A stretch of DNA of 64,000 nucleotides from an uncultured virus (IMG/VR IMGVR_UViG_3300035188_001352) (IMGVR_UViG_3300035188_001352:1-64000), one strand, 5' to 3'; positions 6,647-29,076 are shown, counted from the stretch's first letter. Numbers and translations are program-made. Notes: a model not told the origin generated them from the letters alone.

Positions 6647-7348
6647 TTATAATTCAGCATATTCATCTAAATCCTTTTCAATTAGTTCTCGTTGACATGC
6701 AATAAAGTCTCTATTACCATTTAAATGTTTATTTAGAATACTAAGAGCTTCTTTACATGATTCACTTTCGTCATTTACATCCCCCGTAAATGCATATACA
6801 TCTGTTAAAGTTGGAATCTTTAAAAATGATAAAATAGGTCCAACATAATTAGGATTTATTCTTATTGTTTCTGCATCCAAAATATGTTTATGAATATTTG
6901 AAAAAGAAGCATTTACAAATGCCTCTAGTTGTATTTCTCCATTAGGACAATATTTTGGAAAATTCTCAAAAGATGTAATTTTACGATACTTAAAAAGATG
7001 ATATGTTATAAAAACATCCCTATAATCTGATTTACATACTAATTTTTCAGGAAAGTTTTTGAATGATTTTAATTTTTCTAAACGCTCCAAAATCATATAT
7101 TTTGCATTTCGGATTTTGAATGGGAATTCACCATTAGCATCTAACATTTCATCATAAATTATAAGAGTTCCTAACTGACAATCAACTATCCCAGATGCAG
7201 ATATTTTGAAACCGTGCAAAGAGTTTTTCTTTGGGTCATTCGGTATAAGTTCTTGACTTGCCCAATCATTTAATAGGTCTCGAATACGTTGAACGTATTC
7301 GCTATTTGAAGCCGTGTCTTCTTGTAAGTATTGTTTAAAGCTCTGCAT
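6647..7348 (-). CDS. Array family member 1 (start MQSFKQYLQE)
   Basis: Ends FIACQRELIEKDLDEYAEL; start placed at 14-bp overlap ATG. Confidence 0.9.
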   Translation of the reverse strand: MQSFKQYLQEDTASNSEYVQRIRDLLNDWASQELIPNDPKKNSLHGFKISASGIVDCQLGTLIIYDEMLDANGEFPFKIRNAKYMILERLEKLKSFKNFPEKLVCKSDYRDVFITYHLFKYRKITSFENFPKYCPNGEIQLEAFVNASFSNIHKHILDAETIRINPNYVGPILSFLKIPTLTDVYAFTGDVNDESESCKEALSILNKHLNGNRDFIACQRELIEKDLDEYAEL

Positions 7349-8009
7349 ATTCATCTAAATCCTTTTCAATTAGTTCTCGTTGACAAGCTACAACATTTCT
7401 ATCACCATCTAAATGTGTTCTGACAATTCGAATGGCCTCATTTAATTTATCGTATTTTGCTAATCTAATACTATTAGAAGAAAACCAAACTTGAGTTGGA
7501 TGAGGTATTTGTAATAATCCTAATAACCCTCCATTAAAATACTCCATTTGATAAATGTGAATCGCATCACATTTTACTAGCTTTTTGATATTTGTAAAAA
7601 CTGTATCAACTTGAACATTGATAGACAATAAATGACAAACTACTTGAAATGGAAGTAATCTATTCAATCCTATATTACAATTAGCCGAAAACTTATGATG
7701 ATTAATGACATGCGCAAAGTTCATTTTATACTCAGAGCAAACTGCTTCCATAATCTTACCATGCAAATCAAACTGAGCTTTTTCAGATTTCAACCAATTA
7801 CTATCAGGGTCTATAATAACTACAACAAAACCTTCAGTGCTTACATCTTGAAGTGAAAACTTAAAGCCTTTCAACACTGGTGAGACTATACCACGAACTT
7901 TTGCTGAAGTTATGTCTGTTATAGGATTTCCTGGAAAGTAATAACAACATTCAAGATAAACTGAATTCTGAGTTTCACCTTCTTGCAAGTATTGTTTAAA
8001 ATTCTGCAT
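7335..8009 (-). CDS. Array family member 2 (MQNFKQYLQE)
   Basis: Ends VVACQRELIEKDLDEYAEL; body similar to 15233..15904. Confidence 0.9.
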   Translation of the reverse strand: MQNFKQYLQEGETQNSVYLECCYYFPGNPITDITSAKVRGIVSPVLKGFKFSLQDVSTEGFVVVIIDPDSNWLKSEKAQFDLHGKIMEAVCSEYKMNFAHVINHHKFSANCNIGLNRLLPFQVVCHLLSINVQVDTVFTNIKKLVKCDAIHIYQMEYFNGGLLGLLQIPHPTQVWFSSNSIRLAKYDKLNEAIRIVRTHLDGDRNVVACQRELIEKDLDEYAEL

Positions 8010-8664
8010 ATTCGTCTAAATCACGTTCAATTAGTTCTCGTTGACAAGCTACAACATTTTGACGTTCAGGATTCAAATGCTTATTGATAACATACATCCA
8101 ATGCAATTCATGATAATCTGATGTTGATAAGTTGATTGCTTTACCTTTCTTAGCTAACCTAATAATGCCTAATGCCTTTCCGGTAACGTTTTCACAATTA
8201 CGAATATATAAGTTTCTAAAAGAAGATATAATTTTATCAATTCCGGATAATGAAGATTTATTTTCTACATTTACATAAACAGTATCATATGAAATTGGAA
8301 TTGAAAGTTTAGGAACCTCATGTGAAAAGAATAGATTAACATGGTGGTCTTCATGATTTTCTCGATAGTTAGAAGAATCACCTGCAAATTCATTCAATAC
8401 GTCTAAAACATTTTCACGATAATTATCAAAAGCATCAACATTTTTATCTTCAATCAATAATTTAATAGAAAATGAAATAGTACTAACTAATATAATACTA
8501 TCAGTTCCAGTCTTTTCATTGATAAGTTTTTTGAACTGTTGCAAATTTGCTTTCATCTTCTTACATAAGTCAGTCAATCCGCTAAATTCTAATGTAAGCT
8601 CTATCATATGATTTTGTTTTAACTTTGGAATAGCTTCGTGTTCAAATAGTTCTTTTACTTTCAT
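7996..8664 (-). CDS. Array family member 3 (MKVKELFE)
   Basis: Ends VVACQRELIERDLDEYAEF; body similar to 11237..11872. Confidence 0.9.
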   Translation of the reverse strand: MKVKELFEHEAIPKLKQNHMIELTLEFSGLTDLCKKMKANLQQFKKLINEKTGTDSIILVSTISFSIKLLIEDKNVDAFDNYRENVLDVLNEFAGDSSNYRENHEDHHVNLFFSHEVPKLSIPISYDTVYVNVENKSSLSGIDKIISSFRNLYIRNCENVTGKALGIIRLAKKGKAINLSTSDYHELHWMYVINKHLNPERQNVVACQRELIERDLDEYAEF

Positions 8665-9602
8665 TAAAACTCCGCGTACTCGTCTAGGTCGTTTTCAATT
8701 AGATCACGTTGGCACGCAATCCTGTTGCGCCCTGCAAATATATGTTTAGTTAGAATTTTACCTAAGATAAGATCAACTTCTTGTGGTGGTTTTGTTTGTC
8801 GAACACCTTGTTCTAATCCTTTAATTTTCAAAATAGAAAGAACACCACTTTTAATAGTTGGGTCAAATTGTAACATGATGCCTATTCTTTTTACTAACTT
8901 ATCTAAATTGTCAAAAGAAGTAATTTTTGCATTACGATAAATTTGTAGATTACCATCAATATCAGAAGCAATATGTTCTAATGATGATAAGTTTTTATTA
9001 TCCCATATAGCTAAATTTGTTAATTTAGATGGACAACCTTCTAAAGATATTAGATTTTCATTGTCACTTATCATCAAATGTTCAATTGTTGGCGGACAAC
9101 CTTTTAGGGAACGAATTGAAGATTTAAGAACATTGAGATAAATTGTATCTTTTGGGAATTCAATTTGAGTTAAGTCAGGGCCCATTTCTCCAGATAATAT
9201 AATTGTTTTATTTTCTTCTTTCTTAGCTAATTTTTTTTCAGCTATGTCTTTCAGCTTTTTTAAACAGTTGATATAACGAACATATAGATTAGGAACGGGA
9301 ATAGGCGAATTCATCTTAGTGGCTCTATCAGCATGTGCTGCCTGAGCTCTTATCTGTCCATTAGAATAAATCGAATAATCCATAGTTCCATTTTTCAACT
9401 TGAATGTTAAAGTTCCGTTTTTTAGTTTTATAGCAGAACTGATATCAAATGTTTTTGAAAGTATTTCTTTATATTCGTTTGATTGTTTGACTTTATTTAG
9501 AGTATCAGCTAAATCAACCGGGTCAATAGGCGGCAAATCTTTAACAGCAGGTATCGAAACACCGGCTTCTTTTAGTAATGGAAATAGTTCATTTAGTTTC
9601 AT
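8664..9602 (-). CDS. Array family member 4, LRR-containing (MKLNELFPLLKE)
   Basis: Repeats SLKGCP / SLEGCP / SLEHIA / SFDNL; ends IACQRDLIENDLDEYAEF. Confidence 0.9.
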   Translation of the reverse strand: MKLNELFPLLKEAGVSIPAVKDLPPIDPVDLADTLNKVKQSNEYKEILSKTFDISSAIKLKNGTLTFKLKNGTMDYSIYSNGQIRAQAAHADRATKMNSPIPVPNLYVRYINCLKKLKDIAEKKLAKKEENKTIILSGEMGPDLTQIEFPKDTIYLNVLKSSIRSLKGCPPTIEHLMISDNENLISLEGCPSKLTNLAIWDNKNLSSLEHIASDIDGNLQIYRNAKITSFDNLDKLVKRIGIMLQFDPTIKSGVLSILKIKGLEQGVRQTKPPQEVDLILGKILTKHIFAGRNRIACQRDLIENDLDEYAEF

Positions 9603-10327
9603 TAAAACTCCGCGTAATCGTCTAGATTATTTTCAATTAGTTCTCGTTGGCAGGCAATAGCATTTTTTTCGTCTGTTTGTAAATGGTTATAGACTATTCC
9701 AATTGCTTGGCGAAGTTCATTAGAGTATTTAGCTCTTTCAGTTGCTGGATATGAAATAGTTCTCAATCCTGGTATCTTTAGCAAGCCTAATATAGAATTA
9801 GTCAAAGTATGCGGAACGACAATTTCACCATCACCTTGTCTATTAGGTCTTATTTCTTTGATGACTTTGTGAATGCCACTCAAAGAAGTAATACCAGTTC
9901 CACGAAGTATATATGAAGAAGCTCTTTCAGGAAAATAATCAAGTGATGTGATTTCTGGATTGTTGCTAATGCTAAAACGACCACCCACGATTTTAGGACA
10001 TCCTTTCAAAGAACCTAAACTACAATTTGCTATAAAGAAGTTCCTTTCTATTTGTCCAAACTGACATGGCAAATAACGAAGATGAGTTGAACCATTAATA
10101 CGTGGCAAACATTCTTCATCACCAGATAATAACACAGCCGTAGCATTTACAATACCATAATCATACTTTGCATTTTCAAAGTTGCCAGGGTCTAAATCTT
10201 CAATGTTATACTTCTTTAGAACTCGATGACCATTTCTAGTAATCCAGTCGATAATATCTTCTTCCGGCCAAAAGTCGAAATCGTTGTTAGCCTGTTCTTT
10301 TAATAAGTATTGTCTAAAACTCTGCAT
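9602..10327 (-). CDS. Array family member 5, LRR-like (MQSFRQYLLKE)
   Basis: SLKGCP / SLDYFP / SLSGI repeats; ends IACQRELIENNLDDYAEF; start at 14-bp overlap. Confidence 0.9.
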   Translation of the reverse strand: MQSFRQYLLKEQANNDFDFWPEEDIIDWITRNGHRVLKKYNIEDLDPGNFENAKYDYGIVNATAVLLSGDEECLPRINGSTHLRYLPCQFGQIERNFFIANCSLGSLKGCPKIVGGRFSISNNPEITSLDYFPERASSYILRGTGITSLSGIHKVIKEIRPNRQGDGEIVVPHTLTNSILGLLKIPGLRTISYPATERAKYSNELRQAIGIVYNHLQTDEKNAIACQRELIENNLDDYAEF

Positions 10328-11240
10328 AATCATCCAAGTCGTTTTCAATTAGTTCACGTTGACATTTGATAGCACTTCGTTCACTAGAGAATAAATGCTT
10401 AGAAACAATTTGAGCAACTAAACCAAATTCTCCATCTTCTGTTTTTCTACCATTTATAGTAAATGCAATTGAAGTACAATCTTTTACTTTGAAAAATGCT
10501 AAGACCCCAGTTTTGACTGGCGGTAAAGTAAATCCTTGACACCTCGGAATATGCTTATGAACGTCAGAGAATGAAGTGATTGGATTACCATACGCTTGAA
10601 TAAACTGAGCATGCTTTGGAAATCCTTCAAAAGATGTTAGCTTATTATTAGCAGCATTAAACAATCTACATTGTTCAGGACCACCAACTAAAGGCGAAGT
10701 CAGTTCATTGTTGTTACAATAGAAATCCCCACCTACTGAGAAATCCCCCGCCGCATTAAGTTCAGGTGCTCCTTCTAAGGTTGTAAGATTATTGTAAGAA
10801 CAATTGAAGTTTGAAATCTTATTTGGATAAATTCTGCCTTTTAGCGTAGTAAGACTAAGATTACGCACATCATCTTTAGCATTCTTTAGACGTTTTGCAA
10901 ACCAATTCACAAAATGGGTATGTATTGTATCTAAACAGTTCAGATACATTTGTAATGAACCGTCTGGACCCGCACCATAACCCGCTTTACCCCAAATAGA
11001 GGCGTAAGAATTTTTGACTTTGATATCACCTGCATAATTGACAAAGTATTCTCGTGGTTCTTTTAGATAGGTATCTTTAGTCACTATTTGCAAAGAACCA
11101 TTCTTTCTTTGTATTTTCGTGGAGTTCAAGTCAAAGTACTTCGAGAAGTCCTTAAACTCTGGAGTTTGTTCTAATTGGTCAATGACCGCTGAATAGTCTG
11201 CACCTTTAGATGCTTCATTTAACAATTCTGATATTTTCAT
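10314..11240 (-). CDS. Array family member 6, LRR-containing (MKISELLNE)
   Basis: CSYNNLTTLEGAP / CNNNELTS / NNKLTSFEGFP repeats; ends IKCQRELIENDLDDYAEF. Confidence 0.9.
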   Translation of the reverse strand: MKISELLNEASKGADYSAVIDQLEQTPEFKDFSKYFDLNSTKIQRKNGSLQIVTKDTYLKEPREYFVNYAGDIKVKNSYASIWGKAGYGAGPDGSLQMYLNCLDTIHTHFVNWFAKRLKNAKDDVRNLSLTTLKGRIYPNKISNFNCSYNNLTTLEGAPELNAAGDFSVGGDFYCNNNELTSPLVGGPEQCRLFNAANNKLTSFEGFPKHAQFIQAYGNPITSFSDVHKHIPRCQGFTLPPVKTGVLAFFKVKDCTSIAFTINGRKTEDGEFGLVAQIVSKHLFSSERSAIKCQRELIENDLDDYAEF

Positions 11241-11872
11241 AGTTCTGCGTACTCGTCTAAATCCTTTTCAATTAGTTTTCGTTGACATGCAATGACATCA
11301 CCCGAGTTTAAATATTTTAAAACAATGTTAGCCCATTCAGGATTTGGAGTATTGATTTTTATTACTCCATGTTTTGCTAACTTTATCAAACCCAAAACAC
11401 CACCTGTAATATTCTCAGAATTATTGATTTCTAAATAACTAAAATCTTTTATTATTTTATGAATACCAGATAATGAAGTTTTATTAAGGTTCTGAATAAA
11501 GATATTCGGAAACTCAATTGGTATTGGTAATGAAGGAACCTGTTTGTCAAATGTTAAATGAACTATATGCGACCCTGAATCTTCACGAATTTCAGTGATA
11601 TCAAAAAACGCTTTAAGAACAGCATTGACATCATCTATGTAATTCGCAAAATCATTCACCTGATGTTCTGGAACTTCAAGGCTAATATCAAATGTACCTT
11701 TACCAACTTGAATAATTGAACTCAATCCGGTTTTTTTGTCAATAGCATCAGTTATCTTTTTAGGATTTTCATTGAGTTTTGTTAAAGTAGTAGTTAGAGC
11801 ATTATACGACAGCCATAAGTCTATAAAATAATCTTTTCTAACTGAGGTTTCAAATAGTTCTTTTATTTTCAT
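11237..11872 (-). CDS. Array family member 7 (MKIKELFE)
   Basis: Ends IACQRKLIEKDLDEYAEL. Confidence 0.9.
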   Translation of the reverse strand: MKIKELFETSVRKDYFIDLWLSYNALTTTLTKLNENPKKITDAIDKKTGLSSIIQVGKGTFDISLEVPEHQVNDFANYIDDVNAVLKAFFDITEIREDSGSHIVHLTFDKQVPSLPIPIEFPNIFIQNLNKTSLSGIHKIIKDFSYLEINNSENITGGVLGLIKLAKHGVIKINTPNPEWANIVLKYLNSGDVIACQRKLIEKDLDEYAEL

Positions 11873-12528
11873 TAAAATTCCGCGTATTCGTCTAAGTCTT
11901 GTTCAATCATTTCACGTTGACATGCAACTATATCTTGATTTTCTGATTTTCTATAACTAGTAATAATTTTAACCCATTCAACAGTTTTAAACTTATTACC
12001 CCAATCTGCATTATTTAGAATGAGTTTGCCTTTGATTTTCAATAACCCTACAACACTATCGCTAATCATATTAGCATATTCAATTCTAAATAATTCATCT
12101 GCTTTAATAAGTTTATCAACACCTGCTAATGAAAGAGCTGTATTACTATTTGAGTTCAAATAGATAACCGGCCATTCAATTGGGCTATTTGGCATATTGT
12201 CAATAAAGACAATAGGAAATGATGAACCTTCGTTATAAGGGCTTTTATCGATTTTGTTAAAGCTTTCGACTACTTCGCGAACTCTTTCTAATTGATGTTC
12301 AATATTAGTTTTGTTGAATGGAAGTTTTCCGTTCAAAGTTATTCGTACTTGGTTACTTGATGATGGTTTATCGACAAGTTTAACTTTTACGCCAGTAAGA
12401 TTAGCTTTAATCAAAGCATCTCGAATAGCAATTACTTTTGGTGCAAAATGTGTTTCAAACGATAACTTTATTTCAAAAGTATCGGTTCTATTACTTGTTG
12501 CTTCATTTAATAATTCTGATATTTTCAT
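11872..12528 (-). CDS. Array family member 8 (MKISELLNE)
   Basis: Ends VACQREMIEQDLDEYAEF. Confidence 0.9.
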   Translation of the reverse strand: MKISELLNEATSNRTDTFEIKLSFETHFAPKVIAIRDALIKANLTGVKVKLVDKPSSSNQVRITLNGKLPFNKTNIEHQLERVREVVESFNKIDKSPYNEGSSFPIVFIDNMPNSPIEWPVIYLNSNSNTALSLAGVDKLIKADELFRIEYANMISDSVVGLLKIKGKLILNNADWGNKFKTVEWVKIITSYRKSENQDIVACQREMIEQDLDEYAEF

Positions 12529-13166
12529 AATTCTGCGTACTCGTCCAGGTCGTTTTCAATTAGTTTTCGTTGACATGCAATCCAATCATTGGCTGTTTGA
12601 TAACTATTTATGATAGATATAGCTTTTAATAAAGTATTATAACCTTCTTTCCATCTATCAGTTGAAGCAGTAGAAAGTAAAGGAATATTTTTCATCTTCA
12701 ATACACCTAATAAGTTTGATTGAACTGATACAGGAACATAAATCTTACTGCAACTCTGAATATGTTTATGAATATCTTTGAATGAAGTGATAGGATTATC
12801 AATCAAATCTAAAGAACCACTTATATTATAAGGAGCACCTTCAAGTGAAGTAATATTATTTTTATAACAATTTACAGCACCATGAACCGAGTTTGGAAAG
12901 TTTTTGAATGAAACTATTTGTCTATCTTCAATATCAAAATCACCTAATACTACGTCAAGTTTATATTTTAGTTCATATCCATTTTCAACTTTATCAGCGA
13001 AAGCTCCAAATGCCGTATCAGATTGCGATAAGTCTAATTTAGAATTAGCATATAATATGCCCATTTTATTTAGATTGATAGTACCTTGAGTAAGCATTCT
13101 CAATTGCTCTGCTACTTTATATGGTATTTGTTCTTCTTCCTGTTCAAACAATTCTTTTATTTTCAT
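12525..13166 (-). CDS. Array family member 9, LRR-like (MKIKELFE)
   Basis: SFKNFP / SLEGAP / SFKDI repeats; ends IACQRKLIENDLDEYAEL. Confidence 0.9.
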   Translation of the reverse strand: MKIKELFEQEEEQIPYKVAEQLRMLTQGTINLNKMGILYANSKLDLSQSDTAFGAFADKVENGYELKYKLDVVLGDFDIEDRQIVSFKNFPNSVHGAVNCYKNNITSLEGAPYNISGSLDLIDNPITSFKDIHKHIQSCSKIYVPVSVQSNLLGVLKMKNIPLLSTASTDRWKEGYNTLLKAISIINSYQTANDWIACQRKLIENDLDEYAEL

Positions 13167-13831
13167 TAAAACTCCGCATACTCGTCTAAGTCATTTTCAA
13201 TTAGTTTTCGTTGGCACGCAATGGTGTTGCCATTAGGTAAGAATTCATTGAGAATATCAATTGCTCTTTCGAAATCGTCAATACTTTCACTTGATATCCA
13301 AACAGTTTTAAGGTTTTTGATTTTCAAAAATCCTAATATCGGACTTGGCTTATTCCCAGAAATATAAATCTTATCAGCTTCTAAGATATGGTTATGAACA
13401 TTAGCGAATGATAAATTTTGAGCTTCCCATAAATTCAATACTCCTTTGGAATACTTTGGAATACTTTCTAAAGAAGTAAGCTTAGGGAAATTTACTCCCT
13501 CTAATTTTAGAGCATCAATCTTTGAGCTTTTAGGAGTTTCAATATACTCTGGAAAGTTTTTGAATGAAGAAAGTGCAGACGTATAAACGTGAATACATTT
13601 AGCTCGGGTAATCTTGAATGGAAGAGTTCCTTCTGGCGTTAGCATTCTTTCCGTAATTTGAAATTTTGGCATATTGCATGAAACTGTTCCATCTTTAGCG
13701 ACTACAAATTTGTCATAGTAATCATGCGGAAAAGTTTGCCAACTTCGCCATTCATCAATAATAGCAAGTACTTCATCCTTAGACATTTGTTGATTACTAG
13801 ATGTTTGTTCAAATAGTTCTTGTATTTTCAT
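13166..13831 (-). CDS. Array family member 10 (MKIQELFE)
   Basis: Ends IACQRKLIENDLDEYAEF; close paralog of 15904..16581. Confidence 0.9.
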   Translation of the reverse strand: MKIQELFEQTSSNQQMSKDEVLAIIDEWRSWQTFPHDYYDKFVVAKDGTVSCNMPKFQITERMLTPEGTLPFKITRAKCIHVYTSALSSFKNFPEYIETPKSSKIDALKLEGVNFPKLTSLESIPKYSKGVLNLWEAQNLSFANVHNHILEADKIYISGNKPSPILGFLKIKNLKTVWISSESIDDFERAIDILNEFLPNGNTIACQRKLIENDLDEYAEF

Positions 13832-14523
13832 TAAAACTCCGCGTACTCGTCTAAATCTTTTTCAATCAATTCGCGTTGACATGCAATGGCATCTCGTTTA
13901 GAACTTGCTAAATGTTTATTTAGTATCTGTTGCCACTTATCACCATGGTCTGTAACTGAACTCAATCCATTTATCTTTAGAAATCCAAGAATAGGACCTT
14001 TATACGGATATGGAAATTTAACACCTTCAACATAATCGATATGTTTATGAACATTTGCAAAAGATAGTTTCGGAAAATGAGAAAAATCTGCGGAACCATT
14101 AATATGTCGAGGCACACCTTCTAATGAATGAATATTAGGCCCTTTCATTGTGCTATTAACTCCGAATATGTTCAGCATTGTGCCATTACTATTATTAAGA
14201 ACTTTATCTGGAAAGTTTTTAAACGTTGTCATTGCATTAACACCATAAACATCAAGTGAAATACATGATATAAACTTGAATGGAAGCTCTCCGTTCTCAA
14301 ACATCCATTCATAAAGTTTTAGATTTTCGCTCAAATGCTCTACACCATAACCTCCACCTTTATATGGAACTATTTTATATTTTCCGAATGGTGGATACCA
14401 TGAAGAATATGTTGCAGCTTTTTCAGAAGCAATTTTGGTTCGCCATTTATGTATCTTAGCCATGATAGCAAATTCTTCCGGATGCTTCTTTACTGCTTCA
14501 TTTAACAACTCTCCAATTTTCAT
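13831..14523 (-). CDS. Array family member 11 (MKIGELLNE)
   Basis: Ends IACQRELIEKDLDEYAEF. Confidence 0.9.
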   Translation of the reverse strand: MKIGELLNEAVKKHPEEFAIMAKIHKWRTKIASEKAATYSSWYPPFGKYKIVPYKGGGYGVEHLSENLKLYEWMFENGELPFKFISCISLDVYGVNAMTTFKNFPDKVLNNSNGTMLNIFGVNSTMKGPNIHSLEGVPRHINGSADFSHFPKLSFANVHKHIDYVEGVKFPYPYKGPILGFLKINGLSSVTDHGDKWQQILNKHLASSKRDAIACQRELIEKDLDEYAEF

Positions 14524-15236
14524 AGTTCTGCGTACTCGTCTAAATCCTTTTCAATTAGTTCTCGTTGGCACTCAATGATGTTTCTTTTACCTTTTAAATG
14601 TTCAGTAACAATAGCACAAGCTTTTTCTTTATTAGTTGTAGCATTTTGTAATGTTGGACCATTAATTTTTTGCAAGTTTGGTATTTTCAGAAAACTTAGT
14701 AATGGGCCAACATAATCACGGTCAATAGCAACAACAGAACAACTTTTGATATACTTATCAACATTAGAAAAATTCACTTTTTCTAGCATGCTCATATCAA
14801 TACCACCCTGAACTTCTGGAGTAATTCCTTCTAACGAAGTGATATGATCATATCGTTCATCATTTGAATAAACCCCTCCAAAGTTAAGTGACCAATCAAA
14901 TCTTCCAAATCCTACTTTATTTCTATAATCTCTAAGTATTTCATTAGGAAAGTTTTTGAATGACTTAATTTTTGGAGTTCCAACTGATAACTTATAACAA
15001 CTATGGATTTTGATTGGTAATTCTCCATTTTCATCTAACATGTAGTTTCGAATTACTAATGCTCGTCCTTTATGAATAAGATGATTATCTGGGGTTAGCT
15101 CGAAGTGACCAAAAGCAGATTCTGAAAATTGCGGATTAGCTTTTATTTCTTCTCGCCATTGTTTAATAATGGCTCTAACTCGTTTTGTTTCTTCTGAAAC
15201 TTTAGGTGCTTCTTGAAGTAGTTCTCGTATTTTCAT
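14520..15236 (-). CDS. Array family member 12 (MKIRELLQE)
   Basis: Ends IECQRELIEKDLDEYAEL. Confidence 0.9.
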   Translation of the reverse strand: MKIRELLQEAPKVSEETKRVRAIIKQWREEIKANPQFSESAFGHFELTPDNHLIHKGRALVIRNYMLDENGELPIKIHSCYKLSVGTPKIKSFKNFPNEILRDYRNKVGFGRFDWSLNFGGVYSNDERYDHITSLEGITPEVQGGIDMSMLEKVNFSNVDKYIKSCSVVAIDRDYVGPLLSFLKIPNLQKINGPTLQNATTNKEKACAIVTEHLKGKRNIIECQRELIEKDLDEYAEL

Positions 15237-17595: not shown

Positions 17596-17599
17596 AATC

Positions 17600-19721: not shown

Positions 19722-19727
19722 GAGTAT

Positions 19728-20039: not shown

Positions 20040-20045
20040 AAACAC

Positions 20046-21001: not shown

Positions 21002-21647
21002 ATTCGTCTAAATCCTTTTCGATAAGTTCACGTTGAAAACCAATGACATCCTGTGTAGGACGATGCTTTATCAGCATTTCGTCAATCTTATGATGTAAAT
21101 CTCCAGACGATCTTGAATAGAGATACATATCAACGCTCATAGGTATTTTGCATAATGACAAGATATGACCTTTCAGCTTTTGAATATCGTTAATGAATAG
21201 TTCTTGAACTTCTGGTCCTATGAGCTTGTCTAACCCGGTAAGACCAATGGAATTTTCTTGACAATTGATAGTTACTCTTTCAGTAATAACTTTGAATGAT
21301 GGAACACCATCGAAAACTAATTCTGATTGACCATGAGCAATAGGATCTTCATCTTTATTATTAAAATCATTAACTGTTTCTTCAACTGTTTGAATAATGT
21401 CATCATGTATATCCGGTAGTTCATGAATATAAGATGCCACAATCTTTGGTATTTTAGTCAAAATAGCTTCTTTATCAATATGAACTTCAGCTTGAGGATA
21501 GACAAACTTGATGTTTTTGACTATCCTTTGTCTAAGATTTTCTGATGGAAGATTTTCAAGAGAAAGGTCTACAACATATGTTCCACTACTAACTCTGCCT
21601 TGTGTCGTCATCGGTAATTCATTCTCAAATAGTTCTTTTATTTTCAT
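20988..21647 (-). CDS. Array family member 16 (MKIKELFE)
   Basis: Ends IGFQRELIEKDLDEYAEF; start reassigned to TAATG overlap at 21647. Confidence 0.9.
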   Translation of the reverse strand: MKIKELFENELPMTTQGRVSSGTYVVDLSLENLPSENLRQRIVKNIKFVYPQAEVHIDKEAILTKIPKIVASYIHELPDIHDDIIQTVEETVNDFNNKDEDPIAHGQSELVFDGVPSFKVITERVTINCQENSIGLTGLDKLIGPEVQELFINDIQKLKGHILSLCKIPMSVDMYLYSRSSGDLHHKIDEMLIKHRPTQDVIGFQRELIEKDLDEYAEF

Positions 21648-22384
21648 TAAAACTCCGCATATTCGTCTAGGTCTTTTTCGATAAGTTCTCGCTGACATTG
21701 TATAATACTAGAACTATTATACTTATTTAGTATTTTTAACACTTCTACTACTTCAGTTAGAGACGTTCCATTAATTGTCATAATTGAACCCCATGTCAAT
21801 TTAGCATTACATTTCAACAATGATAACAGCGGTTTTTGTTTGATTAGGTGTAGAGCGGTGTTATAGAAACGAATTTGTGGAACTGCAAAATGTTTGTGTA
21901 AATCTCTAAGCGGTGCTTTCCCAATACTTCCAATTTTTAGTTCTTGTGCAATCGAAACTTTTCCACAATCAAAACTTTTCAAGTTAGGAGTATAGAGATA
22001 TAACGAATCTTTGATAACTGGAGTACAATGTTCTAATGTTTCTAATGACGGAACACTTATATTCAATTGGTCGCATGCATCAGGAATTCCCCAAAGTGAT
22101 TTGAAATTTGAACCATCTGCAACATTTATTTCAAACTTCTTAGCAGTTCTGTACTTTACCATGAGTGCAGTTTCACCATGACCGTATCCGCCAATGTCGC
22201 CATATACCCCATTAGGCGAATAGTCCGACTTAGTGACAGATACAGTTCCGTCTTTATTCACTTTCCATCCAGACATATTAGCATAATTTTTCATATAGTA
22301 CTGAACTTTCTCAGGGTCAGTAATATGCCAAGGGGCAAAATTGGTTGCTAACTTTTCAGCAAGATAAGATTTAAAATTCTGCAT
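21647..22384 (-). CDS. Array family member 17 (MQNFKSYLAE)
   Basis: Ends IQCQRELIEKDLDEYAEF. Confidence 0.9.
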   Translation of the reverse strand: MQNFKSYLAEKLATNFAPWHITDPEKVQYYMKNYANMSGWKVNKDGTVSVTKSDYSPNGVYGDIGGYGHGETALMVKYRTAKKFEINVADGSNFKSLWGIPDACDQLNISVPSLETLEHCTPVIKDSLYLYTPNLKSFDCGKVSIAQELKIGSIGKAPLRDLHKHFAVPQIRFYNTALHLIKQKPLLSLLKCNAKLTWGSIMTINGTSLTEVVEVLKILNKYNSSSIIQCQRELIEKDLDEYAEF

Positions 22385-23015
22385 ATTCGTCTAAGTCACG
22401 TTCAATTAGTTCTCGTTGAAAGCCAATAGTATCTTTACTCCCATTATAGTATTTATGTAAAATGTCATTAACAATTTTAAGGTCGCTAAGTAATTCATCT
22501 GGACCATTTATCATGATGCTATCAAAACCTTTTACTTTTAGAAGCGATAGTATTCCAATTGATTTAGCCGGTGCTTCAAAACGAATGTCCAATTGAAATG
22601 CACTTGAACCTTCTATTAGTTTTTCGATACCTTTAACAGACTCTTGGTTAGTATAGATAGTAGTCAAATGATTTTGAATGACCATCTTGAAAGCAGGTGG
22701 CCAATGACATTCAATATGACTGTAAGCGTCAACAGGTTCAAAGTGGTCAGTAACTATGTCATGTATATCACCTAAGAAATCAACAGTTTCAAAAAGATGT
22801 TGCGGAACATCGTGTATTTTGACAATTATTGAATCAAAAATAGAAGTGAACTCTATTGTATTAGAAAGGTTGTATTCTTCCTTGATAAATTTTGTAATTA
22901 GGAATACTAGAGTTTTACGTTTGCCGACAGAAATAGGACCAGCAAAGTCAATTTGTACATTGACAATTGGTAAGTGTCCAGCACTTTCTAATAAGTATTC
23001 TTTAAAACTCTGCAT
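22371..23015 (-). CDS. Array family member 18 (MQSFKEYLLE)
   Basis: Ends IGFQRELIERDLDEYAEF. Confidence 0.9.
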   Translation of the reverse strand: MQSFKEYLLESAGHLPIVNVQIDFAGPISVGKRKTLVFLITKFIKEEYNLSNTIEFTSIFDSIIVKIHDVPQHLFETVDFLGDIHDIVTDHFEPVDAYSHIECHWPPAFKMVIQNHLTTIYTNQESVKGIEKLIEGSSAFQLDIRFEAPAKSIGILSLLKVKGFDSIMINGPDELLSDLKIVNDILHKYYNGSKDTIGFQRELIERDLDEYAEF

Positions 23016-23796
23016 ATTCGTCCAAGTCGTTTTCTATTAGTTTACGTTGGCATCCAATAATATCAGGGTTGTTTGACGCTAAGTATGTATTGACTATTCT
23101 AGTTGCTTCAACTAATTCTTCGTTTACTTTAGTTTTATCAGAAAAGTAAAGTTGAATACCAAACATATTTCGTGTAGGCTTTTTAATTTTGAATATACTA
23201 AGTAATCCTTTTCCAACTAAAGTTTTTGCTGCGGCATTAGACAATGTTATGTTATTTACTATTTTGAAATGTTGTCCGATAGTTCTAAACAATTCATAGT
23301 CAAATTCGTAGTCAAGCACTAATCTATGACATGTAATTTGACATCCTTGACCCCATTCTTTCAACTTTAGACAATCGGTCAATATCAATGCCTCTTTAAC
23401 TTCACATGCAAATCCTTTGAATGAAGTAATTTGTGAAAGTTGTATGTTTAAACTCATTCCGACTTTATTAGGTCCATATTCTAATGTAGTCAATTTCCTA
23501 GTATTGAAATCTTTTATACTAACTCTACCTGGGCAATTGATATTGTTATACTTTACAAGTAGTCCAACTTCACCATTATCAACAGGTCCGATTTCACGAA
23601 TAGCGAAGAATTGCTCTCCTCGAACAGAAATACTTCCATTCTTTAGGAATACGAATGTAGTTGGCAAATATTTATTTCCATAATGTTCAAGATAAAACTC
23701 ATGAAGTACTTCCTTAGTTGCTTCTGGAGTTGTTGGGTGCCAAGGTGCCAAGTTCGTTTGCTTAGCTTCAGCAATAAAGTTCTTAAAATTCTGCAT
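23002..23796 (-). CDS. Array family member 19 (MQNFKNFIAE)
   Basis: Ends IGCQRKLIENDLDEYAEF; start at 14-bp overlap. Confidence 0.9.
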   Translation of the reverse strand: MQNFKNFIAEAKQTNLAPWHPTTPEATKEVLHEFYLEHYGNKYLPTTFVFLKNGSISVRGEQFFAIREIGPVDNGEVGLLVKYNNINCPGRVSIKDFNTRKLTTLEYGPNKVGMSLNIQLSQITSFKGFACEVKEALILTDCLKLKEWGQGCQITCHRLVLDYEFDYELFRTIGQHFKIVNNITLSNAAAKTLVGKGLLSIFKIKKPTRNMFGIQLYFSDKTKVNEELVEATRIVNTYLASNNPDIIGCQRKLIENDLDEYAEF

Positions 23797-24451
23797 ATTC
23801 GTCCAGGTCGTTTTCAATTAGTTCGCGTTGGGCAGCAATAGTGTCATGGGATTTTGCATATTTATTTAGTATTTCAATCCAGTGTTCATTTTTTCCTAAT
23901 ACTGAATGTAATGATTTTATCTTCAACATACTCAACACGTTAGTGACTTCTCCTACTATATGTTCAAACCTGAACACTTGAGTATCAGGGAAATGTTTGT
24001 CAAAGTTGCTAAGTGAGATACTTTTATTACGTTTCAAATCAAATACTATGACTGGATAATGTATGATAGTATTAGGATTGACCGGACCAAAGAACCATAC
24101 ACTTGGATTGACTTCATCTAGTGTCAATCCACCGCTTAGCTCACGATTAGAAAAATTCGCTGCTTCAGTCGCTATTTCTTCTAACTCATCTTGTACATAA
24201 TGTCGATTGCTTAGTTTAATTTCAACTTGTAGATTGTCATCTCTATTGAAACCCCAATCAATATCTTTCATACCTAAATGACTTTTAAGATCGTTGACAA
24301 ACTTTTCAACTTCATTATCAAAAGCATCGCGATTTCTATGATTTCCCATAGCTTCGCCAAAAGTTTCTTTGTTCTCTAGTTCTAAGACAAGCCATGGGAA
24401 AACAAATGGAGATTCATTTTCTTTTAGTAAGTATTGTTTAAAGCTCTGCAT
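23783..24451 (-). CDS. Array family member 20 (MQSFKQYLLKE)
   Basis: Ends IAAQRELIENDLDEYAEF. Confidence 0.9.
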   Translation of the reverse strand: MQSFKQYLLKENESPFVFPWLVLELENKETFGEAMGNHRNRDAFDNEVEKFVNDLKSHLGMKDIDWGFNRDDNLQVEIKLSNRHYVQDELEEIATEAANFSNRELSGGLTLDEVNPSVWFFGPVNPNTIIHYPVIVFDLKRNKSISLSNFDKHFPDTQVFRFEHIVGEVTNVLSMLKIKSLHSVLGKNEHWIEILNKYAKSHDTIAAQRELIENDLDEYAEF

Positions 24452-25100
24452 ACTCGTCTAAATCCTTTATAATAAGTTCGCGTTGGCATTCAATAATATC
24501 GTTATTATTTTCAAAATGTCTATGAACAATCTTAAACCATTCTGGTTCATTACTCATTGCCCATTCAAGATTTTGAAGATTTGTCATTTTCAACAATCCT
24601 AATACTTGCCCAGTGACTTTAACCGCGGCACTTACGTATAAAGCCAAATCTTTAGGATTTATAGCTTTATGAATATCATGTAAAGATACTTCAGCACCAC
24701 CATTTACTGTAAAGTTAAGAGCCACCTTAGGATGCTCAATTTTAAATGGGGGTATGATATTAAAGATACTTACAAACTGTTCTTTTAACTTCAAGGGTTT
24801 AGTAATAATATCTTTGTAATAGTTATTTAGCAGACCAAGCAGTTTTTTGTCAAAAGCACTAATACCTTCTGTACTACCTTCAGTTGCATTTGTGATTGGT
24901 ACTTTAAAAGCAAATTCTTTATCTCGGTATTCTATAGAAACTATTCTATTCTCAAATTGATTATGTAACAGATTGCCGATTGCATTTTCTATTGTTTCTG
25001 AAGTCGAGGGTAATGAAGAATTTGGTAGGTTACCGGGAACCTTACAATAAACATAATAGGTAATTCTTTGTGCGCCATTTGACATGTTATAACTCCGCAT
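24438..25100 (-). CDS. Array family member 21 (lacks typical N-terminal tag; start 25100 or 25085)
   Basis: Ends IECQRELIIKDLDEYAEL. Confidence 0.85.
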   Translation of the reverse strand: MRSYNMSNGAQRITYYVYCKVPGNLPNSSLPSTSETIENAIGNLLHNQFENRIVSIEYRDKEFAFKVPITNATEGSTEGISAFDKKLLGLLNNYYKDIITKPLKLKEQFVSIFNIIPPFKIEHPKVALNFTVNGGAEVSLHDIHKAINPKDLALYVSAAVKVTGQVLGLLKMTNLQNLEWAMSNEPEWFKIVHRHFENNNDIIECQRELIIKDLDEYAEL

Positions 25101-25791
25101 ACTCGTCTAAATCTTTTTCAATTAGTTCACGTTGACACGCGATGAAGTTTTTATCGGCGTCGAAATGTTTCATTACAATTTCATACCAAGGAGGTATCTT
25201 TTGAGAACGTGGCCAAATTGTAATATGCTTCAATTCTTTTAACTTTAATAATCCTAATACATTAGAATTTATTTTATTAATCGCATTATAGAAAATAATT
25301 TTTTTGCAATGAGGCATTTTCTTATGAATATCTTTTAGAGATATTGAAGGAGAATGATCTAAGTAAAATTCGATATATGGCCAATCAGTATAAACATTTG
25401 GACCAAGTTGTTCTCTAAAAGATATGTATGTATTGTCTTCATCACGGTGAAATATATCGGTTCCTAAAAGCTCATCAACTATTTCAGTGCATTTTTTACG
25501 TATTTCTCTAACATGATTAGCATGTAAGTTAGTCTCATCTAGTTCATATGTAATAAGCATTTCATCAGCTCCGAAAAAAGCTTCAACTTCATTATGTCCA
25601 AAGTAATCTTGAAGATGAGATGTTATCCATTTTTCGAAAGTAATATGTGGATTATCGTCACCATCACCGTCAGTAATCCATTGCTCAACCTCAGACGTAA
25701 AGATACCAGTGCTAATATCAATGTACGCGTTAGTGGGAAGTTCATGATTAATAATTTCTTCTTTCAATAAGAATTCTTTAAAACTCTGCAT
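25087..25791 (-). CDS. Array family member 22 (MQSFKEFLLKE)
   Basis: Ends IACQRELIEKDLDEYAEL. Confidence 0.9.
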   Translation of the reverse strand: MQSFKEFLLKEEIINHELPTNAYIDISTGIFTSEVEQWITDGDGDDNPHITFEKWITSHLQDYFGHNEVEAFFGADEMLITYELDETNLHANHVREIRKKCTEIVDELLGTDIFHRDEDNTYISFREQLGPNVYTDWPYIEFYLDHSPSISLKDIHKKMPHCKKIIFYNAINKINSNVLGLLKLKELKHITIWPRSQKIPPWYEIVMKHFDADKNFIACQRELIEKDLDEYAEL

Positions 25792-26455
25792 ATTCGTCTA
25801 AATCCTTTTCGATAAGTTCACGTTGACAAGCTACAATATCTTTTGACTCTGACCTTAAGTATTTGCTAATAATTACTTGAACATCTCGGTGTTCGCTTGA
25901 ACATTGGCCAAAAAACAAAGCTTGAAGTTTTGGAATCTTTAATGCCCATAAGACACCACCTTTCCATTGATTAGAAATTGTTAAAGTGCCATCTATGTAT
26001 TCAAAATGTTTGTGAGCATTAGACCAATCAAGATTATGACACAAGCCTAATCCAAGGTTTCCATCAATTCGTTTTGAAATGCCATCTAACTTTGTTAGAA
26101 GTGGATGCGCACAGGTAGTCACGATAGCAGTTCTTCCATACATCTTATCGCCGGTGAATGATACATCTGGTGGAAATCCTTCAAATGATGATAATCTATT
26201 GGCACCCAATTCAATCTGACCACACTTTATCATTTTGAAAGTTAGCTTACCGGCATCAGGTCCATCTTTAGGAATAAGAGTATTCTTTAAGTTCCAACGT
26301 CCATCAATTGATACCATACTATTAACAACGCTAAATTTCCCAAAGCTGACTGGCATCGGATGTGATGCATACTTACCTTTACGAATCGCATTTATTTCGA
26401 GTCGTACAGCTTTATCTTCGGCAGTTTCTTCAGTTAGTAGTTCAGAGATTTTCAT
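25778..26455 (-). CDS. Array family member 23 (MKISELLTE)
   Basis: Ends VACQRELIEKDLDEYAEF. Confidence 0.9.
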   Translation of the reverse strand: MKISELLTEETAEDKAVRLEINAIRKGKYASHPMPVSFGKFSVVNSMVSIDGRWNLKNTLIPKDGPDAGKLTFKMIKCGQIELGANRLSSFEGFPPDVSFTGDKMYGRTAIVTTCAHPLLTKLDGISKRIDGNLGLGLCHNLDWSNAHKHFEYIDGTLTISNQWKGGVLWALKIPKLQALFFGQCSSEHRDVQVIISKYLRSESKDIVACQRELIEKDLDEYAEF

Positions 26456-27120
26456 AGTTCTGCGTATTCGTCCAGGTCGTTTTCAATAAGTTCTCGTTGG
26501 CATTCAATAAAATTTCCAAGTGGTAAATATTTGTTGATAATATTACAAGCATTTCTTAAATTCACTTTAATTTTTACTTCATCTTGAGATTTACCAGAAT
26601 GGTGGTCAATAAATCCTACATGCTTCAAGTCTCTAATTTTTAGTAATGATAATAAGGGCCCTTCATATAAAGCACTAGTTATTAACCATCCATCAAGTCT
26701 TTTGACATACTTATTGAAATTTGTAAAATCAAAGTTTCTAATTCTTGATGTATCAAGTCTATTACTAATATCTGATGGAAATCCATCAAGAGATTGTATT
26801 TGGTTACCTGTAGAAAATTCAATACCACCTTCGCCAACTATTTCAGGAAAGTTCTTGAACGTCTTAGGAACATTCCATATTACTAATCGAAGAGCTTCTG
26901 CAATTGGAAATAGTAATTCATCATTGTCATCAAACATGCAATGCTCAATAATTAAAGGTTTCTTCAAATAGATTTTTCCATTCTTAACTGCATGTCGTGG
27001 AAATTTATTCGGAAACCTACATCTGCCAAGTTCTCCACTCTTATACTTTCCAATCATTTCACGGATTTGTTTATCATCCGGATTAGAAGCTTCAGATAAG
27101 TATTGCTTAAAGCTCTGCAT
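26452..27120 (-). CDS. Array family member 24 (MQSFKQYLSE)
   Basis: Ends IECQRELIENDLDEYAEL; start at 14-bp overlap. Confidence 0.9.
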   Translation of the reverse strand: MQSFKQYLSEASNPDDKQIREMIGKYKSGELGRCRFPNKFPRHAVKNGKIYLKKPLIIEHCMFDDNDELLFPIAEALRLVIWNVPKTFKNFPEIVGEGGIEFSTGNQIQSLDGFPSDISNRLDTSRIRNFDFTNFNKYVKRLDGWLITSALYEGPLLSLLKIRDLKHVGFIDHHSGKSQDEVKIKVNLRNACNIINKYLPLGNFIECQRELIENDLDEYAEL

Positions 27121-27793
27121 AATCGTCCAAGTCAAGTTCAATTAGTTTTCGTTGGCAAGCTATAAAGTCTTTTCCTGTATCGAAATATTCCTTTACAATG
27201 TTAAACCATTGAACTTTAGCTGAAGCATATAATGTTATAGCATTCTTTATCTTTAGTAATCCTAATACATTTTGTGTTATATTAGAAGAGTCACCCATAG
27301 AAATCTGTTTAGCAGATAATATGACTTTATGTATATCTTGTAAGGATTTGACACTTTCTTCAATGATAACGTGATTGACTTCAACTGTAGTCGTTTTATC
27401 AAAGTTATCTTCTAAGATAACTACTGGCATTTCAGAAGATACTGGTTCAAAGTCATTCTTATAAATTTCATACTTATCTGCTAACTTGATAAACTTTGTT
27501 GCTATAGTATCAAGTTGCGGTTTAGTATAATGAGTATGGGGTTCAAGAACTAAATGAAACGTTACTCTATCAACTCCAAAATGATAGACTTCTTTTACTT
27601 TAGGAAGATTTGCTTTTTCACAGAGTTCAGATAATTCACGAATAATTATATTGTTTCGCTGAAAAAGCTGTTCTCTATTATACTTTGGAGAAATGTAATC
27701 ATCTCCACGTACTTTTATTTGAAGAAGCAATGGGCGAATTGGTTCTACCCAATGATCATTGCCTTCTGCTAAGTATTCTTTAAAACTCCGCAT
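27107..27793 (-). CDS. Array family member 25 (MRSFKEYLAE)
   Basis: Ends IACQRKLIELDLDDYAEL. Confidence 0.9.
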   Translation of the reverse strand: MRSFKEYLAEGNDHWVEPIRPLLLQIKVRGDDYISPKYNREQLFQRNNIIIRELSELCEKANLPKVKEVYHFGVDRVTFHLVLEPHTHYTKPQLDTIATKFIKLADKYEIYKNDFEPVSSEMPVVILEDNFDKTTTVEVNHVIIEESVKSLQDIHKVILSAKQISMGDSSNITQNVLGLLKIKNAITLYASAKVQWFNIVKEYFDTGKDFIACQRKLIELDLDDYAEL

Positions 27794-28451
27794 ATTCGTC
27801 TAAGTCTTTTTCAATGAGTTCTCGTTGGCAAGCAATAGCATTTCTATTGCCTTGCAAATAAGGATTGACAATTGAATACCATCGTGGGCTATTACTTCCA
27901 AAAGGACCTGCGCCAATAATATTGACTGGCATTTTTAGTTTGAGCAAACTAAGTATTCCCCCTTTTATCATATTTGCTTTATAAAGTCTGAACTCATCAC
28001 ACTTTAGAATAACTTTATCTAAGTTAGAAATCGATTGACCTTCTTCACACCAATATGAAATGTTACCATCATTTATACTTAGCTTAAAATTTGGAAATCC
28101 AAAACAAGATAACTCAGCTGTAGAAAATTTTACTTGTAATTCAGGTGAAATCTTAGTCGTAAAAAACTCATTCACAGTTGAACTAATAGTATCACGTAAC
28201 TTTTGAATAGTTTCTGCTTGACACTGGATTTGTTTTGTTATCTTAAACTTCAAATCAATTCCATAAGTAGTACTGAGATAACTTGAAATATCATAACCTT
28301 TCTTTTTTGCTACTTTTATTATCAAATTTTTAAGCTCAGATTCTAAAGAATATGGAGAATATTCAATTTTGACTTTAGTTTCAACAAACATCCCAAGTTG
28401 AATATTTGAATCAGTTTCTACTTCTTGTAAGTATTCTTTAAAACTCTGCAT
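27780..28451 (-). CDS. Array family member 26 (MQSFKEYLQE)
   Basis: Ends IACQRELIEKDLDEYAEF; start at 14-bp overlap. Confidence 0.9.
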   Translation of the reverse strand: MQSFKEYLQEVETDSNIQLGMFVETKVKIEYSPYSLESELKNLIIKVAKKKGYDISSYLSTTYGIDLKFKITKQIQCQAETIQKLRDTISSTVNEFFTTKISPELQVKFSTAELSCFGFPNFKLSINDGNISYWCEEGQSISNLDKVILKCDEFRLYKANMIKGGILSLLKLKMPVNIIGAGPFGSNSPRWYSIVNPYLQGNRNAIACQRELIEKDLDEYAEF

Positions 28452-29076
28452 ATTCGTCCAAGTCGCTTTCAATAAGTTTACGTTGACAAGCAATAGCATC
28501 ATGTCGATTTGCTTCACAATATTTAGTTACAATTTTGCATGCTTCCTTTAGTTCGTCAGAAGCAGTTGATAATGGCGAAACCTTCATTAGGTTTTGTATC
28601 TTAACAAAGCTTAGTAACCCTTTAGTTTCTTCAGGTATTGAAATTGAATAGACTTTTTTGACCACTTTTTCAATACCTTTGAAATTGATAATACCTGTAT
28701 TATGCAGATAGATATCTTCAGCTTCTTCAGGTAAGTATTCAACTGAAGTAATGTTCTTACCCTTTACATTGAACTGTCCACCCACAAATTTTGGTACCCC
28801 TTTCAAGTCAATCATATCATTTGCTAATACATGAACATCTTTAGTACATTCTCTAAAGTTGATTGGCAATACACACTGCTTCCCTTTGTACCAGACCAAA
28901 TCACTTCCAGAAATTGATAAACTCCAATGACATGTGATACTCATATCTTTATGAATTTCATAATTCCCCTGACCAATGCCATGAGCTTTCATCCAAGCAT
29001 TGATTTGAGACTTCTTAGTATAGAAAGTCGATTCGCGTTCTTCTTTTAGTAAGTATTGTTTGAAAGTATTAGACAC
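28438..29076 (-). CDS. Array family member 27, LRR-like (MSNTFKQYLLKE)
   Basis: DLKGVP / SVEYLP / NFKGI repeats; ends IACQRKLIESDLDEYAEF. Confidence 0.9.
   Translation of the reverse strand: MSNTFKQYLLKEERESTFYTKKSQINAWMKAHGIGQGNYEIHKDMSITCHWSLSISGSDLVWYKGKQCVLPINFRECTKDVHVLANDMIDLKGVPKFVGGQFNVKGKNITSVEYLPEEAEDIYLHNTGIINFKGIEKVVKKVYSISIPEETKGLLSFVKIQNLMKVSPLSTASDELKEACKIVTKYCEANRHDAIACQRKLIESDLDEYAEF

Follow-up and report, generated by a model that had tools for sequence, protein, structure and literature searches.

Tandem arrays of leucine-rich repeat proteins with T4-like leader sequences in an uncultured jumbo phage, candidates for virion cargo

What might a phage do with dozens of genes that keep their ends constant and differ almost everywhere else? 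The question is raised by a 64,000-nt window of DNA from an uncultured virus (IMG/VR IMGVR_UViG_3300035188_001352, positions 1 to 64000), in which two tandem gene arrays, at 6647-16581 and 20252-29076, lie on the minus strand. An original prediction described the array genes, together with two orphans, as a hypervariable family with constant terminal tags and proposed that they encode effectors packaged in the phage head. We conclude, with a probability of roughly 0.6, that the family is late-expressed, leader-targeted virion cargo consisting of diversified leucine-rich repeat (LRR) binders. The location inside the head, cleavage of the leader, ejection, and targets we infer.

The window contains 29 paralogs, 14 in array 1, 13 in array 2, and the orphans at 32064 and 39457, and every predicted gene was found on the minus strand at its original coordinates. 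A search of the whole contig gave 32 family matches, these 29 plus three at 106075-107896 beside the prohead protease gene, and an overlapping contig (G001) adds two further members. Assembly artefact was ruled out as the source of the arrays, because 21 of the 32 IMG/VR loci that we fetched are colinear with the window at 99.99-100% identity and come from at least nine IMG/VR sample datasets. In six members, the start is an ATG inside the open reading frame (ORF) and not its first start codon: 6647-7348, 9602-10327, 20988-21647, 23002-23796, 26452-27120, and 27780-28451. Nearest paralogs are not neighbors (for example, 7335 pairs with 15233 and 9602 with 28438), so the duplications are old. 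Gene junctions are of three fixed types: an ..EYAEF-stop end lying over the next start, MQSFK (14-nt overlap), TAATG, and ATGA.

To describe what is constant and what varies, the 32 members were compared all against all by BLASTP (E<1e-3, 496 pairs), with the last 75 residues and the remainder treated separately. The last 75 residues matched in 496/496 pairs, with a mean identity of 49%. Outside them only 40 of the 496 pairs matched and the members fell into 19 clusters, in agreement with the earlier description of the N-terminal parts as often unalignable. The C-terminal motif (I/V)xCQR(E/K)LIE.DLD(E/D)YAE(F/L), first described as closing every member, does end all 27 array genes, but the ends of the two orphans are degenerate (..DFDEYATF and ..DLDESGWAE). 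All 27 array genes agree on the Q, R, I, L, D, Y, A, and E of the motif, and 24/27 have the Cys. The looser S.xGI.K and LLxLLKI segments also appear in the alignment consensus.

In the final 20 codons ahead of the stop, the encoded residues show little or no variation, yet the synonymous codons are mixed: Cys is TGT in 13 genes and TGC in 11, Arg is CGA in 15, CGT in 8, and CGC in 4, and Tyr is TAT in 16 and TAC in 11. Third-position identity is 57%, versus 79% for nucleotides overall. Thus, selection acts on the protein that the segment encodes. The mixed synonymous sites rule out gene conversion alone as the force that keeps the C-terminal end constant, and the mixed codons before the stop likewise rule out overlapping gene packing as its cause. 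The longest common exact DNA word lies within the last 75 nt for 181 of 269 gene pairs and reaches a maximum of 56 nt; such words at the junctions may favor unequal recombination.

Structure prediction places the constant segment at the end of an LRR fold. The AlphaFold2 model of 15904-16581 (predicted local distance difference test [pLDDT], 93; predicted template modeling score [pTM], 0.88) has a short flexible N terminus, a helix, a series of short strands, and two C-terminal helices. In a VIA-align comparison with 48,161 PDB chains, the top 50 listed matches were all LRR proteins at Z 5.6-7.5; these scores are modest alone, and it is the uniformly LRR match list that carries the weight. Foldseek against PDB returned nothing at E<=0.001 and weak LRR rows alone at E>=0.26. 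The family profile searched against PDB sequences reached the IpaH7.8 LRR at E=0.0015, and four relatives (P0091, P0094, P0100, and P0106) pass the Pfam LRR_4 cut-off. A Pfam scan of the 27 array members found no family at E<=0.01, and the PHROG matches, led by phrog_21719 (7.7e-6, two long members), were all weak and to families of unknown function. The four best fold matches in BFVD (E=5e-7 to 3e-5) have 236, 253, 288, and 288 residues, sizes that fit family members of the cultured Ralstonia phage RsoM2USA, and an ESM Atlas search returned unnamed viral clusters alone.

In the model of a second member, 7996-8664 (pLDDT 90.4), most repeats are replaced by a beta-alpha-alpha-beta-beta-alpha domain, after which come the common last LRR turns and cap. 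This N-terminal domain has generic ferredoxin-like matches alone (Z<=5.3). The proposed shared LRR/cap scaffold therefore holds for the LRR fold with its helical cap but not for every member throughout its length. According to the models, the common scaffold is a curved beta/loop LRR solenoid with a helical cap. The C-terminal segment, originally regarded as a tag, is predicted with pLDDT 94-98, which argues that it is a well-folded LRR cap rather than a loose tail. A further idea, that the C-terminal nine residues are removed at L-I-E, was downgraded on two grounds: both models fold the end with confidence, and relatives carry LID, LYD, or LMD there.

The N termini bear leaders that resemble a known loading signal. 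The capsid-targeting sequence (CTS) of T4 is MKTYQEFIAE (excerpt of PMC8442874). Targeting depends on its residues 4 and 7 and processing on residues 8 and 10, gp21 cleaves after L/I-x-E, and Alt is trimmed C-terminally too (excerpts of PMC9026906). The type A leader, M-Q/R-S/N-F-K-x-Y/F-L/I-x-E, is present in 12 of the 32 members and keeps the T4 residue type at all four positions (aromatic 4 and 7, aliphatic 8, Glu 10); in one case, MQNFKNFIAE, the last four residues are identical to those of the CTS. The type B leader, MK-I/V/L-x-E/D-L-F/L-x(0-2)-E, is a shorter variant ending in L-x-E and is present in 15 members. Five members fit neither pattern, two of which also have no L/I-x-E. With corrected starts, L/I-x-E falls within the first 14 residues of 30/32 members; within the first 12 residues, it occurs in 19 of 165 other contig genes and in 83 of 91 small relatives from other phages. 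A regular-expression scan of all possible starts on the contig gave 28 leader matches, 27 of which were family members. In the consensus built from 87 diverse relatives, MKxxELxE comes first, and hardly any of the next ~50 positions has a majority residue. Both models are least confident in the leader (pLDDT 71 and 53-68). No similarity in sequence to the T4 internal proteins IPI-III was seen. The members in the window, all on the minus strand, are as follows.

15904-16581, minus strand: array 1, member 1, 225 aa; leader MKIKELFE; AlphaFold2 pLDDT 93, predicted LRR fold
15233-15904, minus strand: array 1, 223 aa; leader MKIKELLSE
14520-15236, minus strand: array 1, 238 aa; leader MKIRELLQE
13831-14523, minus strand: array 1, 230 aa; leader MKIGELLNE
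13166-13831, minus strand: array 1, 221 aa; leader MKIQELFE; 52% identity to 15904-16581
12525-13166, minus strand: array 1, 213 aa; leader MKIKELFE
11872-12528, minus strand: array 1, 218 aa; leader MKISELLNE
11237-11872, minus strand: array 1, 211 aa; leader MKIKELFE; alpha/beta N-terminal class
10314-11240, minus strand: array 1, 308 aa; leader MKISELLNE; extra LRR repeats; phrog_21719, 7.7e-6
9602-10327, minus strand: array 1, 241 aa from the internal ATG; leader MQSFRQYLLKE
8664-9602, minus strand: array 1, 312 aa; leader variant MKLNELFPLLKE; extra LRR repeats
7996-8664, minus strand: array 1, 222 aa; leader MKVKELFE; AlphaFold2 pLDDT 90.4, predicted ferredoxin-like N-terminal domain
7335-8009, minus strand: array 1, 224 aa; leader MQNFKQYLQE
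6647-7348, minus strand: array 1, last member, 233 aa; leader MQSFKQYLQE
28438-29076, minus strand: array 2, first member, 212 aa; GTG start; leader xSNTFKQYLLKE
27780-28451, minus strand: array 2, 223 aa; leader MQSFKEYLQE
27107-27793, minus strand: array 2, 228 aa; leader MRSFKEYLAE
26452-27120, minus strand: array 2, 222 aa; leader MQSFKQYLSE
25778-26455, minus strand: array 2, 225 aa; leader MKISELLTE
25087-25791, minus strand: array 2, 234 aa; leader MQSFKEFLLKE; strongly acidic, net charge -19
24438-25100, minus strand: array 2, 220 aa; without recognizable leader, starts MRSYNMSNG
23783-24451, minus strand: array 2, 222 aa; leader MQSFKQYLLKE; acidic
23002-23796, minus strand: array 2, 264 aa; leader MQNFKNFIAE, final four residues as in the T4 CTS
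22371-23015, minus strand: array 2, 214 aa; leader MQSFKEYLLE
21647-22384, minus strand: array 2, 245 aa; leader MQNFKSYLAE
20988-21647, minus strand: array 2, 219 aa; leader MKIKELFE
20252-21001, minus strand: array 2, last member, 249 aa; leader MQSFKTYLAE
32064-32762, minus strand: orphan, 232 aa; degenerate leader and end (..DFDEYATF)
39457-40299, minus strand: orphan, 280 aa; leader MKLQDLLTE; end ..DLDESGWAE; ATAAATA 39 nt upstream (40332-40338)

A matching protease is encoded on the same contig. A Peptidase_S77 prohead protease gene lies at contig 108401-109021 (PF03420, 84 bits against a cut-off of 27; phrog_207, 5.6e-54), and three family members sit between it and the scaffold and major capsid genes. 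In T4, the core genes are located between the prohead protease and scaffold genes. The major capsid protein itself starts MELFENW. Leader-like starts also occur on non-members, namely the 394-aa protein heading array 2, a 254-aa HExxH protein, and small proteins by the protease; in a complete genome of 359,550 bp whose TerL is 58% identical (G007), three non-family ORFs upstream of TerS have them as well. The leader thus behaves as a portable module. The 254-aa protein (contig 98987-99751, plus strand) starts MKVRELFLTE and has an HExxH motif (HELTH), which makes it a candidate leader-tagged metalloprotease.

Evidence of virion association comes from RsoM2USA, which has four or five members: ORF88, ORF89, ORF90, and an ORF at 47320-48024 match the family profile at E=2.9e-24 to 1.3e-11. 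ORF89 (66030-66791; profile E=4.5e-19) and ORF90 have type A-like leaders, ORF88 starts MKLHEISE, and the cap is present in all three. When the most abundant bands of purified RsoM2USA virions on sodium dodecyl sulfate-polyacrylamide gel electrophoresis (SDS-PAGE) were analyzed by liquid chromatography coupled to tandem mass spectrometry (LC-MS/MS), ORF89 (28.57 kDa) was among the ten assignments (PMC8504454). The supplement of that study places ORF89 at 66030-66791 and annotates it, like the other RsoM2USA members, as having "no significant similarity" (PMC8504454). We calculated a mass of 28.56 kDa, against the published 28.57 kDa. The predicted presence of the family in virions is thus supported for one member of a cultured relative. 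By profile and predicted fold, the RsoM2USA proteins belong to the same family as those in the window, but there are only 4-5 copies, none beside TerL.

The gene neighborhood and upstream motifs are consistent with late expression. Both array runs were originally said to be headed by ATAAATA late promoters, and both copies of the motif were confirmed on the minus strand, lying 49 and 47 nt upstream of the first gene of the respective run. It occurs 53 times on the contig; 24 copies lie 30-75 nt upstream of a same-strand start, versus 2.0 expected, and in this positional enrichment it ranks first among 21 permutations of its letters. ATAAATA precedes TerL, both tube genes, the sheath, adaptor, and scaffold genes, both array runs, and orphan 39457. 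By analogy with T4 late promoters, which are general knowledge, and from the genes that it precedes, the motif appears promoter-like. The exact T4 late-promoter word TATAAATA was also considered and is not enriched in the window (8 found versus 7.4 expected). The motifs and flanking genes are as follows.

18911-18917, minus strand: ATAAATA, heads run 1 (tube-like gene, head-closure gene, TerS, array 1); located after a terminator-like hairpin and 49 nt upstream of the start at 18868
16581-17054, minus strand: TerS (phrog_445, E=5.3e-5), directly upstream of array 1; G007 homologue in the same position
6636-6643, minus strand: TATAAATA, 41 nt before the TerL start
5042-6601, minus strand: TerL (phrog_36964, 3.5e-66), downstream of array 1
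30491-30497, minus strand: ATAAATA, heads run 2; 47 nt before the start at 30450
29266-30450, minus strand: 394-aa non-member, first gene of run 2; leader-like start MKIFELF

Array 1 (10 kb) therefore separates TerS from TerL (window 5042-17054). In G007, TerS and TerL have four members and a radical-SAM gene between them, and another genome, G010, has family members on both sides of TerL. The 394-aa protein matched neither the family nor any Pfam or PHROG family. A 56-codon ORF lies between its gene and the first array 2 gene and overlaps the GTG start of the latter. A 954-aa double AAA ATPase protein is encoded on the overlapping contig (locus L036 8502-11366; G001 68502-71366, minus strand) and is 43% identical to RsoM2USA ORF86. 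Its gene adjoins family members in G001, G010, and RsoM2USA, and its two G001 neighbors have no leader. ORF86 is also among the ten abundant virion bands of RsoM2USA (PMC8504454).

The family is not special to this phage. A profile search of 1.84 billion cluster representatives returned 12,315 matches at E<=1e-3, 5,313 at E<=1e-10, and 252 at E<=1e-30; among the weaker, longer matches, many cover the LRR part alone. The best 150 matches included 130 newly returned sequences, 94 of which have 350 residues or fewer, and 91 of these 94 end in a ..YA(E/Q/K)L type tail. The profile matched 39 times in one complete genome with terminal repeats (G006, 360,227 bp), and most of these matches form a single array at 280-306 kb. 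Across related complete genomes, copy number varies from 39 and 16 profile matches to the 4-5 in RsoM2USA, and the family occupies 5-8% of some jumbo-phage genomes. Vibrio phage SRILMA and a 735-kb record (LR756501) matched over the LRR part alone. Neither a 20-kb megablast nor a tblastn with a single member as query found a match among 50,697 phage records, and RsoM2USA was reached solely with more typical relatives as queries. One pattern scan of 185,579 species genomes gave 26 pattern matches and no relative.

No source that we searched gives the family a name, and the literature searches, together with the excerpts of PMC7824862, contain no description of it, in line with the original judgment that it had not been described.

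Taken as leader-targeted virion cargo, each member would have three modules: a flexible N-terminal leader of 8-12 residues, T4 CTS-like and ending in L/I-x-E for a gp21-type protease; a variable payload of extra LRR turns or an unrelated alpha/beta domain; and a constant last LRR turn with a helical cap ending ..CQRELIE.DLDEYAEF. The leader would dock the member onto the prohead scaffolding core, and the prohead protease would then cut it off. The mature binders would remain with the DNA and exit with it at infection, and each would engage a different host or competitor protein.

Several points weigh against this proposal. In this phage, it is a prediction from genes and models. XacN1, PA5oct, and Atu_ph07, TerL relatives with published or annotated virion data, have no profile matches, so the family is not needed for such heads. 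Members 24438 and 32064 in the window and two on the overlapping contig are without a leader. The ORF89 band assignment is hedged in its source ("most likely correspond"), where head and tail are not separated (PMC8504454). LRR proteins are also common adhesins, which would suit an external location, and a folded LRR solenoid may be too wide for the tail channel. Finally, the T4 internal proteins are highly basic (excerpt of PMC8442874), whereas the family is not: its median isoelectric point (pI) is 6.0, with 8/32 members above 7.5, or 15/32 if both ends are removed in silico, although this trait may not define the class. The predicted likeness to a greatly expanded T4 internal-protein locus therefore stands for the leader and protease site and fails for charge. 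Four array 2 members are strongly acidic, with net charges of -14 to -19 (20988-21647, 22371-23015, 23783-24451, and 25087-25791), and in this they differ from all other members.

Other roles within the particle would account for some of these features. Members could be displayed outside the virion, as interchangeable LRR adhesins or decoration proteins attached to the tail, fibers, or capsid surface by one of the constant ends, and would then widen host or surface recognition. The LRR is a typical binding and adhesin module, with internalins and Leptospira LRR proteins among the fold matches, the RsoM2USA member has no head or tail assignment, the cap could serve as a common anchor, and multiple receptor-binding proteins are known in jumbo phages. 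We consider external display unlikely, as the leader bears a protease site where T4 cuts, the members group with protease, scaffold, capsid, and terminase genes and not with baseplate or fiber genes, the models are small single-chain solenoids without a fiber-type coiled-coil or beta-helix module, and 30-40 different adhesins per particle would demand many attachment sites. It is also rather improbable that the members are structural components of the prohead core or inner body, paralogs that co-assemble through the cap into an internal scaffold, shape the jumbo head or organize its DNA, and have no role after injection. Three members do lie exactly at the T4 core-gene position, between protease and scaffold, and cap conservation goes far beyond the need of a fold cap. 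Giant phages also own large head paralog families, such as SPN3US family B with 20 members (excerpt of PMC5694885). Against this, payload diversity (19 unalignable clusters and two folds) exceeds what a repeated unit would allow, copy number varies widely between related genomes (39, 16, and 4-5), and the family is absent from XacN1, PA5oct, and Atu_ph07.

A role outside the virion altogether seems to us very improbable. The members would be late cytoplasmic binders, such as host-defense sponges or lysis-timing factors, and their constant ends would stem from translational coupling and cassette recombination. Gene ends that overlap the next start in three fixed ways would fit, as would the exact words shared within the last 75 nt by 181/269 pairs, which could drive unequal recombination. 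Against it, the overlap with the upstream gene covers only the first 4-5 codons of type A leaders and 1-4 nt of type B, and leaders persist in distant phages and on genes that stand singly. The cap also shows free variation at synonymous sites, and ORF89 was assigned to a virion band.

The most economical reading remains that the family is an expanded, structurally unified counterpart of the T-even internal-protein loci. T4 provides the textbook case, three internal proteins that are injected along with the DNA, one of which blocks a restriction enzyme. As in IPI, IPII, IPIII, and Alt, a leader of ~10 residues (aromatic 4/7, aliphatic 8, Glu 10) precedes unrelated payloads, and a gp21-type protease is paired with an L/I-x-E site. 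T-even internal proteins are a highly diverse set sharing the targeting sequence alone (excerpt of PMC3012670). Unlike in T4, with its three internal proteins, there are more than 30 copies here, the payloads have a common LRR cap and are acidic to neutral rather than basic, and the genes lie inside terminase and head operons, with packaging, cleavage, and ejection predicted from gene content.

The giant-phage head paralogs, SPN3US family B (20 members) and the phiKZ/SPN3US family A inner-body proteins (pfam12699), are likewise large tandem paralog sets in jumbo phages with varying copy number; their role is unknown, and they are processed by a gp21-related protease at x-x-E sites (excerpts of PMC5694885). 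They differ in having long propeptides or none and in not being reported as LRR proteins, and the phage studied here belongs to a T4-like lineage related to RsoM2USA, not a phiKZ-like one; this comparison is by description. The Pfam scan of the 27 array members gave no match to pfam12699. The likeness to IpaH/SspH1, internalins, and XopL is one of fold only, a short bacterial-type LRR solenoid with an N-terminal helix cap, and there is no E3-ligase or anchoring domain. The one pattern scan of cellular genomes turned up no helical C-terminal cap with the ending ..EYA(E/Q)L.

More speculatively, and with low probability, the family could be one part of a general cargo system of T4-like jumbo phages, in which the portable leader would load any payload into the prohead. 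The ultraconserved helical cap with its acidic-aromatic C terminus (..DLDEYAEF or ..EEYAQL) would be a common handle read by a virion machine, perhaps the double-AAA+ virion protein homologous to RsoM2USA ORF86; at ejection, this protein could unfold the cargo or set it free. With 30-40 payloads in each genome, the phage would inject a repertoire of binders against host defense proteins, one that turns over between strains like immune-evasion gene families.

The window forms the opening 64 kb of a 118,937-bp IMG/VR viral contig (G000) with the gene content of a T4-like myovirus; CheckV completeness is ~35%, implying a genome of ~340 kb. It encodes TerL, TerS, a head-closure protein, tail tube, sheath, sheath stabilizer, and head-tail adaptor, and the rest of the contig encodes the portal, the Peptidase_S77 prohead protease, a scaffold-like acidic protein, and the major capsid protein. 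TerL is nearest to the jumbo phages RsoM2USA, XacN1, PA5oct, and Atu_ph07 at 38-44% identity, with RsoM2USA the best tblastn match (44%). G000 (92633-118937) and G001 (11146-37450) have 26.3 kb in common at 99.96% identity and then wholly different sequence, which reflects either a misjoin of one contig or a large rearrangement within the phage population.

In the head module, the proteins at 107903, 107270, and 105352 (G000 105352-108379, minus strand) have a common start type of ~25 residues, ..MKELFEIAGIKDID.., which is weakly present in a fourth, 105656. Judged by sequence, this may be a second kind of common leader beside the prohead protease. A homing endonuclease gene (phrog_314; G000 104572-105303, minus strand) lies inside this module, with the small leader-tagged genes on one side and the scaffold gene on the other. 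Two further window genes are unusual phage cargo: a 727-aa di-haem cytochrome c peroxidase-like protein (51981-54164, minus strand; CCP_MauG, 77.5 bits) and a 485-aa reprolysin-like metallopeptidase (43445-44902, minus strand).

In biological terms, the loading signal of the T4 internal proteins may also operate on an unnamed LRR family. The same four tested leader positions in T4 and in distant jumbo relatives would indicate an old and widespread loading mechanism. Because a cultured carrier, RsoM2USA, exists, the idea is directly testable. If its members are packaged and injected, the family would constitute a very large natural library of premade binders against bacterial proteins and a rich source of anti-defense factors.

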